From positions 8,060,001-8,124,000 of the forward strand of contig CM035350.1 in assembly GCA_020137815.1 (NCBI GenBank): a DNA stretch of 64,000 nt, in the 5' to 3' direction. Both the position numbers and the translations under genes were made by a program. Shown here in pieces: positions 50,201-58,061 of this stretch. Every line of letters begins with the position of its first letter. Within the stretch, counting starts at the first letter, position 1. Source of the stretch: Hormiphora californensis. Taxonomy: Eukaryota > Animalia > Ctenophora. Below the pieces are notes generated by a model that was not told the origin of the DNA, did no database searches, and saw only the letters and a program-made list of their open reading frames with translations.

Positions 50201-53004
50201 AAAAAAAACCTTGAAAAGATAGAGAATCGCGCTGTAAACCCACCCACCTGCCCGTTGAATGCACCCCCGGCACATAGGTTTGGAAGAGTGGGGTGGAACT
50301 CAACACACATCAAACAACTGGAGAGATCCAATGTCTGGTCAGCCTTGTTTGTGTTTATCTTGCCCCTGTCGATATTCCAAGTGCACAGGTAACCCTAAAT
50401 TAGAGAGTCAGGGATGAAGTTGAGGGAGTAAGAACTGATATGAAGAAGTAGGACTGTAAGCAACATAATGACTAACTTACAGACATATGACTGAACTTTA
50501 CTAACTAGTATTACCTTATGTGTACACCAGTTATCGTGATCCGGTTTTCCGTACGCTACACCAACCACTGAACCACTGGCATTCCAGGATACACTCTGTA
50601 CCGACAACTGGGGGGTGGGGTGATCAGAGCTACAGCTGGGGGGGATCAGAGCTACAACTGGGGAAGGGGGTGTGATGATCAGAGCTACAGCTGGGGAAAG
50701 GGGGGGGGGGCAATGACTAATGAGATTGTTAAACAGTAGCTGTTGTAGAGACATGTTTTCTACGTTATACCTCATTATGAAGTGGTGCATGGTTCAGGGT
50801 TAGGATGGTTGTGGCGGTGGAGCTCTCTGTTCGTAGCAGATTCTCTAAACCTGGGGGAGTAGGGGTGTCAACATGATTTGGAGATGTTTCAAAAGTATGA
50901 ACATTGAACACAGAACAAGTCAGCAGTGAGCAGGGTGTACCTTTGAAAGCCTTAGAGTTAATGTTATTAGTAAGAGCTTTACTCATCATTCCCTCAACAT
51001 CTTGTAGAAATGCCCCTAACATCTGAAATGACATATTGTGTTAGTTGGAATGACGTGGCAGTAGTTCTTATGACAGTATCTCATGATAAAAGTAGTACTG
51101 TGTATCATTGTTCTGAATGAGTATCATCGTTCTGAATAAAGAGATCTGAGCAAGAATTAAATAGGGAAGAAAATCGAAAAATACTGGGTTTGACCGGGAA
51201 TCGAACCAGGGATCTCCAGAGAGACATGCTCGGAGCTATACCATTAAGCTACCAAACCCCATTACTTCCTGTGTATCATCGGGTATATATCTCTTTGAAG
51301 CACACCGGCAATAAACTGATTCGTATGTTTCATAACAACACAGTATTGGTTAATTTCTTGATCAATATCCCACCCCTGATTTATACCTCTTCATTGCATT
51401 TCTTTGGTTCAACCTTCTCAATGGTATCTGTCTGGATCTGAAAACAGTTTTTACAGTCAAAATGTTTAGTTTTGGGACTGGCGCATATTCTTGTGGTTTC
51501 AAAAGTTAAATAAACGAGAGTAAGGTGTGAATATAACAGCTAACCTCGATAGCTCTCTGTGTGTAGGATTGGGATGAGACATCATTGGTTAACAAAGCAC
51601 TTGTCTGGGTTCCATATGTTTTAACACTCCTGAAAGAGGTTTAGTATCAACTGTCATGACCTCAGGTCCACTCTCCCGCCCAACAAACGATTATTATTAT
51701 TATTATTAAATCTAAAAATGTATACATTGCATTAACTCAACATATACGCCCCTTTTTGTGGGCAATTTGGATAGTCCTTTCGATTTAAATTCAATGGTTA
51801 GAGTTCACTTAGCCACATTTAATGACCCCCTTACTAATCCAATAACGTCCATTCGGATTATCTCGTTTTAGTTCTTTCAGAGTATCAACAAGAGATTTCC
51901 GCTCTCGCTGTTCGTCTGGTGATAGGTCGGGAGAGAGAAAAACGGATGAAAACTTCTCTGAACTCTGCAGCTGCTTTGCTTTCCGAAGAAGCTGCAGCAA
52001 GGATTCCCTTCTTTCAAGGGTGACGATAACAGGTCTCGCTCGGTCATCAGTCCTTAGGCCAACCCGCTTTGTGGAGGTCACGACAGGTTTCTCATTTAGC
52101 TCAGCAAAGATATCCTGAACTTCATGATCAGTAGCCCTGGCAGTGGTTTCTGGGAGCCCAAATATAACCAAATTCAGCTTTCTATCCGGAGTTGTTCTTT
52201 CAGTTGGTGGAGAGGAAACTGTCGCCTTCTTCCATGCTTCCTTCAGGCGAGATGGAGCAATAGCAGCTGAACAATTCTGTACAAGGACCTTGGAGTAGTC
52301 ATGCAACTGCTTTTGGACAGACTCTGACATCGAGTTGTTTTCACGTTTTTGTACTTCAATCAAACTATTTTGTGCTTCTATCAGCTTCCCTTGCAATGCA
52401 ATCCTTGCTACCCGATGCTTGTCGACTTCTTCTTTGAACGTGCTAAGTTCTTTCTGTACCTCCTCCAGTTTCCTATTACAGTCCTCCAGTTGCAGGCGTT
52501 CTTTCGTTCTAGCACTTTCATAGTTCTTCATCTTAGTTTCACACAATCGTTTCTCATTCCCTATTTCCCTCCCTAACTGGAGAATGTGACGACAGAGTTT
52601 CTTAGTGATAGCCTGGAGTCTTTCTGCATTGTACTCCTTCAACTTGTAATCTAGTGGTAGTGCTTCCTCAATATATTGACGCTCATTATCCTCCGTATCC
52701 TTTTCCAAGATCTCGTTTAGTAAATCCTCTACCACTTCTCGCTCGCGTTGACGATTCAGAGTTCCTTTCTTTACCAACATTACATCACTCATTGCACTAA
52801 ACAGTGTACTTCTCATCGTACTACCCAAACATTCTCCTATACTTGAAGATTTCTTTGGCTTCTCCATCGTCGTCATAGCTTGGGACTGCCCCTACGGGCG
52901 GTTCCGCCATCCTAGGGACATATCTCAATAAATAGTTTTACTTACTTAGTTTTACCCCAAGTAGAGGGACAATCGATACATGTCTGAACCTCGTCTCTAA
53001 ACAT
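44285..53004 (-). CDS. WDR34: WD repeat protein 34 / cytoplasmic dynein-2 intermediate chain 2, ~488 aa, 13 exons (52946-53004, 51545-51629, 51387-51437, 50941-51022, 50771-50850, 50515-50607, 50248-50394, 50051-50158, 47139-47301, 46047-46157, 45381-45655, 45116-45198, 44285-44414)
   Basis: Complete in-frame GT-AG model. N-terminal QT light-chain motifs (GTQT, IQTD). Signature segments SWNASGSVVGVAYGKPDHDNWCTHK, CVEFHPTLP, VVGTESG, HSGPVYDTHFSPKHRNLFLTAS, RPLVFAA and GDAKGTVKVWRLS. Confidence 0.95.
46270..47104. mobile_element. pogo/Tc1-type MITE in a WDR34 intron
   Basis: TA TSD, TIR CAGTCGGACCCCGATTTAACGG and an internal inverted duplication. Confidence 0.88.
47648..48292 (+). mobile_element. 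DINE-1/Helentron-associated element (HINE)
   Basis: Sub-TIRs TTTCCCTGCCC / GGGCAGGGAAA, 5' hairpin CCCGGGTGATTGCC-GAA-GGCAATCACCCGGG, (GTCC)n microsatellite, 3' stem-loop GCATTATG..CATAATGC and a TTCTTGTT end. Confidence 0.75.
49216..49550 (+). CDS. Putative secreted neuropeptide precursor, 68 aa, nested antisense in a WDR34 intron (exons 49216-49351, 49480-49550)
   Basis: MFVHVMCVLALMVSSSSGAAIQGGEENNLIHPEMADNEGSYFGLSEESDMSDDIVMRAHEEASYFGMK*. It has a signal-peptide-like N-terminus, acidic spacers, a repeated E-x-SYFG motif and a phase-1 GT-AG intron with good polypyrimidine acceptors. Confidence 0.72.
51109..51268 (-). mobile_element. tRNA-derived SINE
   Basis: A box TAGCTTAATGG and B box GGTTCGATTCC in a tRNA-like head with a distorted anticodon arm. 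Repeated tail ATTCAGAAC.ATGATAC and flanking direct repeat CTGTGTATCAT (51098-51108 and 51269-51279). Confidence 0.7.
51690..52941 (-). mobile_element. ORF1-only (HAL1-like) non-autonomous retroelement in WDR34 intron 1, starting with a spliced-leader-like 18-mer
   Basis: 5' GTAAAACTATTTATTGAG, one intact ORF, ~100-nt 3' UTR, (TAA)n tail and no ORF2. Confidence 0.8.
51809..52876 (-). CDS. LINE ORF1p-like protein (coiled coil + RRM/CTD), 355 aa
   Basis: Heptad-rich middle region. RKLNLVIFGLPE...RVG...RARPVIVTL...LLRKAKQL...VFLSPDLSPDEQRERKSL matches CR1/L2-group ORF1 proteins. Confidence 0.85.
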   Translation of the reverse strand: MTTMEKPKKSSSIGECLGSTMRSTLFSAMSDVMLVKKGTLNRQREREVVEDLLNEILEKDTEDNERQYIEEALPLDYKLKEYNAERLQAITKKLCRHILQLGREIGNEKRLCETKMKNYESARTKERLQLEDCNRKLEEVQKELSTFKEEVDKHRVARIALQGKLIEAQNSLIEVQKRENNSMSESVQKQLHDYSKVLVQNCSAAIAPSRLKEAWKKATVSSPPTERTTPDRKLNLVIFGLPETTARATDHEVQDIFAELNEKPVVTSTKRVGLRTDDRARPVIVTLERRESLLQLLRKAKQLQSSEKFSSVFLSPDLSPDEQRERKSLVDTLKELKRDNPNGRYWISKGVIKCG

Positions 53005-53044
53005 GCCCTAGATAAGAAAATAAAGGAGGATCATTAGTTCATCA

Positions 53045-58059: not shown

Positions 58060-58061
58060 TG
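58023..58061 (-). other. Spliced-leader-like sequence CAAACTTTCATCAACTACAACGTAAAACTATTTATTGAG
   Basis: Its 3' 18 nt recur exactly at 52924-52941. It is AT-rich, ends in TTGAG and resembles ctenophore SL exons as I recall them (not verified by search). Confidence 0.7.

Follow-up and report, generated by a model that had tools for sequence, protein, structure and literature searches.

Associations between spliced leaders (SLs) and retroelements have been described from several lineages. In parasitic flatworms, 597 loci with partial leaders lie at long terminal repeat (LTR) elements and long interspersed nuclear elements (LINEs) (PMC12582326), and six leader-tagged retrotransposons are reported from Schistosoma mansoni (PMC5832876). 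About 30% of the Iso-Seq reads from transposable elements (TEs) in Hydra carry an SL, and TEs there use host machinery (PMC12220107). Dinoflagellate retrogenes with relict leaders are explained by the re-integration of trans-spliced RNA that is spliced again at the AG of the old leader (PMC5585692, PMC3229502; Slamovits and Keeling 2008, cited there). NeSL, SLACS and CRE are non-LTR elements with a restriction-like endonuclease (RLE) that insert into SL genes (PMC4640811). Here we consider a 64,000-nucleotide (nt) stretch of the ctenophore Hormiphora californensis (contig CM035350.1, positions 8,060,001 to 8,124,000; hereafter the window), in which two retroelements at the gene WDR34, a 4.8-kb LINE and a 1.25-kb element, begin with the same leader. 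With a probability of roughly two in three (0.68), RNA of such leader-headed genomic copies is trans-spliced afresh, recurrently, before it is reverse transcribed.

The general idea of leader-tagged retroelements has precedent; what is new is the exchange of one leader type for another within element families, the presence of spare acceptors and a head shared among families. Like the flatworm loci, which their authors read as copies of trans-spliced transcripts, the elements described here are genomic retroelements with a partial SL. The flatworm accounts, as far as their available text extends, are side remarks on discarded loci, without family anatomy, leader exchange, a conserved head or a cycle. 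The Hydra case, in the available part of its account, differs in being at the RNA level, without genomic copies headed by a leader. The likeness to dinoflagellate retrogenes lies in re-integration and in the repeated recycling of leaders at the AG of an old leader, which is proposed here as well. In the available dinoflagellate descriptions, however, the passengers are host genes, the relicts stand in tandem and the AG is near the 5' end of the leader, whereas here selfish elements carry single leaders and the acceptors lie at the 3' end of the leader and in the element head. In the 13 loci described below, inspection by eye of the 200 nt following the leader showed no tandem relict leaders, and none is present in the two window copies. 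A literature search found no paper on ctenophore leader-headed LINE families or leader exchange; its scope excluded subscription journals, Repbase reports and the Hormiphora supplements.

The motif at the start of both elements is a real host spliced leader. Its longest window copy is a 39-mer at 58061-58023 on the minus strand (leader 1). The H. californensis leader printed in PMC8527503 (leader 2) is similar to leader 1 and not identical to it. The sequence-only reading of this DNA had looked to messenger RNA (mRNA) 5' ends and SL RNA loci for the 39-mer, and both contain it. A metagenome scan with 28 nt of leader 1 as the query returned 13 loci, of which eight are mRNA-like: the leader stands at the extreme contig end with a long open reading frame (ORF) directly after it. 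Seven different genes are represented, and the two loci scanned for domains contain NAC and RIB43A; judged by their form, these contigs are probably RNA-derived. Another three loci (L006, L007 and L011) are SL RNA genes identical to the 39-mer at 39 of 39 positions, in which the leader is followed by a GTAAG donor in a conserved context. They form three hairpins with constant stems and variable loops (folding z of -2.6 and -2.2). Right after the donor stands GATTTTCCG, which is similar to the GAUUUUCGG carried by Hydra SL-A in the available text of PMC7986045 and differs from the canonical Sm site, AT4-6G. In the remaining two loci (L009 and L012) the leader heads LINE-type elements.

Several further observations concern the leader. 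The SL RNA genes (L006 2020-2165, L007 1670-1815 and L011 1188-1320) are in the ribosomal DNA (rDNA) spacer: relative to an 18S gene they lie on the other strand and about 1.65 kb upstream. The 18S start is visible in L006 and L007, and L011 has the same spacer sequence. Run X12, which bears the same species label, yields leader-like contigs over 58023-58061 that show 2-3 differences to leader 1 and may represent a third variant. At 58046-58042, one contig of run X5 has a 29-nt partial tandem repeat within a leader copy. A viral scan with the 18-mer common to both window elements gave four matches inside phage-like ORFs, which were set aside as chance, and with leader 2 it gave none. A 14-mer scan of prokaryote genomes was uninformative, with at least 119 chance matches.

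Within the window the 18-mer occurs exactly twice, at 52941-52924 and 58040-58023, both on the minus strand. Two matches arose in 0 of 100 shuffles with three mismatches allowed (mean 0.15), which bears out the initial observation that two different minus-strand elements start with the same leader. The insertions are delimited by read contigs of runs X2 and X5, which pass across the elements at the joints 51690->52940 (1249 letters skipped; sides of 30 and 37 letters) and 53233->58060 (4826 skipped). Because the contigs join across both elements without any leader, the leader belongs to the insertions, and there is no target-site duplication. The uninterrupted form retains 58061-58060 (CA) and 52941-52940 (GT), a 2-nt microhomology at each element. 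The leader edges proposed from sequence alone hold in position, except that their outer 2 nt belong also to the target, so the inserted leader measures 37-38 nt in the LINE (remnant 58023-58061, minus strand) and 16 nt in the 1.25-kb element (remnant 52924-52939, minus strand, plus the GT). The GT doubles as the last two letters of GTAAGT, the donor of WDR34 intron 1, so the 1.25-kb element follows this donor immediately.

The 5' edge of the LINE also splits an old reverse transcriptase (RT) fragment, as originally read. The upper half, GPILFIIY followed at the break by V, is recognized by translation at 58060-58110 on the minus strand (a tblastn match is weak, E 0.08); the lower half, DLQSRV..FADDTKL, occupies 53040-53233 on the minus strand, where it was translated by eye and is placed by the joint, with no significant tblastn match to the LINE relative P0063. 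The flanks at the joint 51690->52940 are unique, so the 1.25-kb copy is missing from some alleles. The joint 53233->58060 is deeper than single-copy sequence and may therefore stem from other copies of the old RT repeat, leaving an empty allele at this site unproven. Runs X8 and X12 have no WDR34 coverage, which is no proof of absence.

How the leader is joined to the element varies between copies. Four DNA runs were placed on 57900-58040; three of them, from two samples, gave one contig each, and X7 gave none, which is no proof of absence. The contigs of X2, X5 and X6 all leave the window sequence at 58024 and continue into CAGGT, preceded by leader sequence that in X5 is identical to the end of leader 2 over 20 nt, in X2 fits leader 2 over 6 nt and in X6 consists of 5 nt common to both leaders. 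The usual form of the LINE family is a leader followed by CAGGTAG and then ATCG.. (the outer join), and in the window copy leader 1 is joined 7 nt further in, at the inner AG (the inner join). The LINE family has leader 2 at the outer join and leader 1 at the inner join. In the 1.25-kb family both leaders are found at the inner join, leader 1 in the window copy and leader 2 in P0009, a Pleurobrachia bachei predicted protein from EukProt that consists of 33 unrelated residues, then QTFQHYFKQINL, which is the translation of leader 2, then R, and then a stretch matching the 1.25-kb head at 22 of 22 residues. L009, a distant member of this family with 36% identity to the 1.25-kb ORF, retains 42 nt of leader 1 and 9 flank bases. 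L012 has 42 nt of leader 1 at the outer join, followed by CAGGTAG and ATATGTC, before a PHD ORF; an 84%-identical relative of that ORF, on a 4.6-kb contig, has CCHC knuckles, and the type is a third kind of ORF1. There is no profile similarity between the 1.25-kb ORF and the ORF1 of the L012 family. The L012 insertion interrupts ORF2 of another, older LINE in antisense.

Among 65 collected proteins, only P0009 begins with a leader translation (first 70 residues, by eye), and the N-terminal extension of P0008, 30 residues long, corresponds to neither leader. No further leader 2 copy or outer-join copy was found in the window. In run X2, 24 contigs diverge at the 3' end of the leader and 19 at 58061, into unlike sequences, so many more leader-headed loci exist. 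Contig depth is 221-546 for the family contigs versus 49-54 in X2, and 1258-5941 versus 127-168 in X5, a sign of several copies and nothing more.

Could the leader 1 join of the window LINE have arisen as an artefact, by polishing over an original leader 2 join? The body of this copy is error-laden, and its leader 1 join is not among the contigs. Such an artefact would need about 10 changes and the loss of 7 nt to yield a perfect 39-mer, and the inner join is present independently in the clean 1.25-kb copy and in P0009. We regard this explanation as very improbable.

Leader 1 is joined exactly at the donor in four of four leader 1 copies, and the SL intron is never included. The exact join, the missing SL intron and the dispersed sites together indicate that the RNA was trans-spliced before reverse transcription, in agreement with the sequence-only reading, and the window elements were very probably copied from such RNA. 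Leader copies are perfectly identical to present SL genes over 39, 42 and 42 nt, while heads and ORFs have diverged. This identity, together with two leaders and two join points, argues that trans-splicing was repeated and did not happen once. Alternatively, the leader might come from the SL RNA genes themselves, either because elements target these genes as DNA, in the manner of NeSL, SLACS and CRE, or because the RT switches template to free SL RNA. The SL RNA genes are multicopy and rDNA-linked, and such targeting exists (PMC4640811); the window elements, like those of the NeSL, SLACS and CRE group, are non-LTR elements associated with SL sequence. They are, unlike that group as described in the available text, dispersed: the three readable sites are the old RT, the WDR34 intron and another LINE, none of them an SL gene. 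The endonuclease of the close relative P0063 is of the apurinic/apyrimidinic (APE) type and not an RLE. With the join at the donor and no SL intron in any of the four copies, a source in the SL genes is largely excluded and ranks as the least probable explanation considered here.

Behind the leader, the elements have a conserved head. Both window copies continue with AT after the leader; identity does end 2 nt past TTGAG, as first noticed, and these two letters are the start of the conserved head and not chance. Three families with different ORF1 regions have in their heads a motif of the form GCCC-N4/5-GGGCAG, which follows the inner AG at distances of 16, 16 and 24 nt. It appeared in 9 of 200,000 shuffled 60-mers, a figure to be read knowing that the motif was picked after being seen. 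It is not in the first 60 nt of the eight mRNA-like loci or of L009, nor elsewhere in the window. Apart from a small hairpin, no structure recurred consistently when the element heads were folded (z of 0.17, -2.41 and -0.46). The motif conserved in the heads might act as a promoter element or enhance splicing.

Such a motif, at a conserved spacing (16 nt in two of the families, 24 nt in the other), would be in keeping with an internal promoter, and leader-derived promoters have been proposed for dinoflagellates in the available text of PMC5585692. A leader captured once and now fixed as a DNA head, with the internal promoter in the motif or in the leader itself and no new splicing, would account for this. 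The explanation is weakened by leader exchange: two leader types and two join points occur inside young families, and the leaders are perfectly identical to present SL genes despite diverged heads. It is improbable, if marginally less so than a polishing artefact, and an internal promoter can in any case be compatible with re-splicing.

The weightier alternative concerns which copies serve as sources. In the LINE family no leader-less 5' end was found in three of four runs (two samples), with the limit that contigs drop rare forms. The family contig runs unbroken from the LINE into the leader, with no branch into ordinary upstream sequence (one contig per run). Sister copies with an ordinary upstream 5' untranslated region (UTR), which would have spoken against the sequence-only reading, were likewise not seen in these three runs. 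This suggests that leader-headed copies are the only full-length copies of the LINE family. If so, they are the sources, and the old leader is the end of an outron. Each family might instead have a rare ordinary master, with its own promoter, an outron and two or three close acceptors, whose RNA is trans-spliced like host mRNA; the leader-headed copies would then be promoter-less daughters that for the most part copy no further, like SL-tagged retrogenes. Passive tagging is common, to judge from the SL on about 30% of Hydra TE reads in the available text of PMC12220107. A rare master would explain both leaders and both join points without re-splicing, and rare forms can drop out of contigs. 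A long unique upstream path should break a family contig in assembly, and no non-leader 5' branch appeared in three runs of two samples, where a master should presumably have produced such a break. Masters would also be unable to renew their own promoter if splicing removed it from most of their RNA, and the pattern is seen in four families. We consider rare masters unlikely, although considerably less so than a fixed head.

Under recurrent trans-splicing, the cycle might run as follows. Transcription would start upstream of the integrated leader, either by host read-through (at WDR34, from the CpG island preceding the outron) or at a start stimulated by the conserved head, and the old leader would then be the tail of the outron. 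The spliceosome would add a new capped leader at the terminal AG of the old one, restoring the full head and possibly changing the leader type; with the AG 7 nt inside as the alternative acceptor, the head would be trimmed. Target-primed reverse transcription of the trans-spliced RNA by the LINE ORF2 protein (ORF2p) would follow, and it would often end within the leader, at a microhomology of 2 nt. The 1.25-kb element would travel the same route as an ORF1-only passenger with a borrowed RT. Host read-through fits the window LINE copy and its 5-nt 5' UTR. The sequence-only reading had cast the terminal AG of the leader as the next acceptor in every cycle, giving an exact 5' end each time. Repeated splicing is backed by leader exchange; use of that AG in each cycle is not, since the window LINE used the AG 7 nt inward, and the 5' end can accordingly slip by 7 nt between the outer and the inner AG. 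In R2 and L1Tc, the 5' ends are defined by ribozymes resembling that of hepatitis delta virus (HDV) (PMC3383444, PMC5786205). The likeness is that a processing step, and not a start site, would set the 5' end of the element within a longer transcript; unlike the ribozymes of those accounts, as far as they are available, the host spliceosome would act here and would add a capped leader. No Rfam match to an HDV-like ribozyme reached the gathering score in the window, L009 or L012.

A number of points weigh against recurrent trans-splicing of leader-headed copies. No RNA read crosses any join of leader and element, and all runs consist of contigs. Rare forms are lost from contigs; the leader 1 join of the window itself is missing from them, so that a single native source copy could be missed as well. 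The join of the window LINE adjoins poorly polished sequence. Leader 2 can be named in X5 only: X2 shows 6 nt of leader sequence, the 5 nt of X6 are shared by both leaders, and X7 shows nothing. The 5'-end comparison covered the LINE family alone and not the 1.25-kb family. For P0009, a predicted protein, the DNA was deduced from the residues, and the species may differ from that of the window. The rule for splice acceptors is YAG, and the leader, which ends in GAG with pyrimidines at 10 of the 20 positions before it, would be an unusual one. Finally, the position of the intron-1 copy is unfavourable for trans-splicing: a 5' splice site stands 22 nt upstream of its leader AG, and according to the available text of PMC4558846 the SL loses out to upstream donors.

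A stronger version of the proposal, which we hold tentatively and as clearly less probable than recurrent trans-splicing itself, is a promoter-less lineage in which all source copies are leader-headed, depend on host read-through only, and rely on SL trans-splicing, at acceptors that they carry, for excision and for the cap. It is equally tentative that these carried acceptors would be the AG of the old leader together with the spare AGs of the CAGGTAG head common to unrelated ORF1 families.

The 1.25-kb element (51691-52939, minus strand, delimited by the joint 51690->52940 in X2 and X5) is a multicopy, non-autonomous retroelement. Its head (52886-52923) begins at the inner-position join with ATATGTC.. 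and contains GCCC-N4-GGGCAG; a 355-amino-acid (aa) ORF follows at 51809-52876 and a (TAA)n tail at 51691-51709, all on the minus strand. The ORF comprises a coiled coil, an RRM and a C-terminal domain, and its predicted fold resembles that of the LINE-1 ORF1 protein (ORF1p). The AlphaFold model has a mean predicted local distance difference test (pLDDT) score of 68, and human L1 ORF1p fills all of the 11 top-ranked Foldseek rows (best E 5.5e-6). Pfam, a PDB sequence search and the ESM Atlas gave the ORF no name (the Atlas lead, Baculo_FP_2nd, applied to 36% of one cluster at 0.86); the fold search alone identified it. The element encodes this single ORF1p-like protein and no RT, a correction to the sequence-only reading. 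Relatives of the ORF number 11 at 42-98% identity, 10 of them on contigs of 1.1-1.5 kb. HAL1, HeT-A and Ag-Sponge are ORF1-only non-autonomous LINEs (PMC5786205), and on its predicted fold the 1.25-kb family is of this type. It is like them, as described in the available text, in encoding an ORF1p-like protein alone and in its simple-repeat tail, and unlike them in starting with an SL. Its 3' end was compared with L009 and with both window LINEs and has no similarity to them above that of shuffles. RNA run X8 covers 827 nt of the body with 2 differences, stopping short of the 5' end, and its library may contain DNA.

The 4.8-kb LINE (53234-58060, minus strand, delimited by the joint 53233->58060) is a full-length APE/RT element of CR1-group type. 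Its relative P0063 (961 aa, with Exo_endo_phos and RVT_1) aligns over 56657-53820 by tblastn (best E 9e-51), and the APE and RT of a CR1-group ORF2 are present by way of this relative. CR1-group LINEs have a short tandem-repeat tail and no or minimal target-site duplication, and the short (AATTG)n repeats at 53234-53256 and a joint with 1 shared letter fit the group. By its C-terminal motifs, the element would presumably be labelled L2-like. Its conserved head (57992-58022, minus strand) is joined at the inner AG without the 7 nt CAGGTAG of the family contig and contains GCCC-N5-GGGCAG, and the first in-frame ATG is 5 nt behind the leader. The ORF1 region at 57400-57150 (minus strand), in error-laden sequence, resembles by eye an SGNH esterase domain.

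The window copy of the LINE has no long open frame. Over about 53600-57950 its body is homopolymer-inflated, with a same-neighbour frequency of 0.44-0.46 versus 0.26-0.28 in the flanking kilobases, and it differs from the family contig pieces by roughly 10-17 letters and gaps per 100. The error-laden body is most likely an unpolished long-read consensus, an assembly error, and not decay. Homopolymer inflation occurs also at about 27000-28000 and 39000-40000, where one stretch borders a 100-N gap (39445-39544); these are probably unpolished consensus too.

The identity of WDR34 rests on one exon, 45381-45653 (E 9e-24 against human WDR34). Both elements run sense to it, the LINE above the first exon and the 1.25-kb element in intron 1, as the sequence-only reading had it. 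The enrichment in sense orientation that it had expected finds no support: two copies are sense in the window and the third readable site, L012, is antisense, a count to which we attach no weight. The first coding exon (MFRDEVQT.., 52946-53007, minus strand) ends at the donor GTAAGT (52945-52940), in a phase compatible with exon 2 at 51629-51545. The 1.25-kb insertion lengthened intron 1 from 67 to 1316 nt. The 9-mer GTAAAACTA (52945-52924 region, minus strand) is found at the end of the exon and again, 14 nt away, in the leader remnant, and the insertion left the donor undamaged. A pyrimidine-rich TAG before exon 1 is likely a trans-splice acceptor, its use being judged from sequence, and the lower half of the old RT fragment is located in the presumed outron. 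The CpG maximum of the window lies at 58250-58400 (15-16 CpG per 100 nt versus a window median of 2 and a 99th percentile of 9) and at single-copy depth (depth bin 58116-58362). In the direction of WDR34 transcription, the LINE starts about 250 nt after this peak, and a further 225 nt separate its end from the exon-1 acceptor. Taken without the LINE, the peak stands about 475 nt from the acceptor, a spacing that suits a promoter and an outron. The peak may be the WDR34 promoter, which would put the LINE in the outron.

Other repeats accompany the two elements in the window. A second LINE at 58760-61800 on the plus strand, antisense to WDR34, has a clean, open 898-aa APE-RT frame that is 46% identical to P0063; it is 5'-truncated within the endonuclease and has no leader. 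In a WDR34 intron, 51186-51258 (minus strand) is transfer RNA (tRNA)-like (Rfam 36.6 bits) with very high contig depth nearby, probably a tRNA-derived short interspersed nuclear element. Long, near-perfect inverted repeats with arms of 440-790 nt, at 7011-8420, 9772-11351 and 11838-13256, are foldback elements or resemble miniature inverted-repeat transposable elements.

Genomic leader copies number 718 in Hormiphora and 491 in Mnemiopsis, by the counts in the available text of PMC8527503. The present results suggest that many of these hundreds of ctenophore copies are retroelement heads rather than SL genes, which, if true, matters for annotation. Because the animal has at least two distinct leaders, the leader type and join point of each copy record separate splicing events. 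A tree of copies annotated with both could show whether leader-headed copies are sources, a matter testable from sequence alone. The feature described here is likely a variant of LINE in which host trans-splicing sets the 5' end and later resets it. In known cases LINEs maintain their 5' ends by internal promoters or ribozymes, and host trans-splicing would be a third way. Should the promoter-less version of the proposal be true, the host spliceosome would be the 5'-end machine of an animal LINE lineage.

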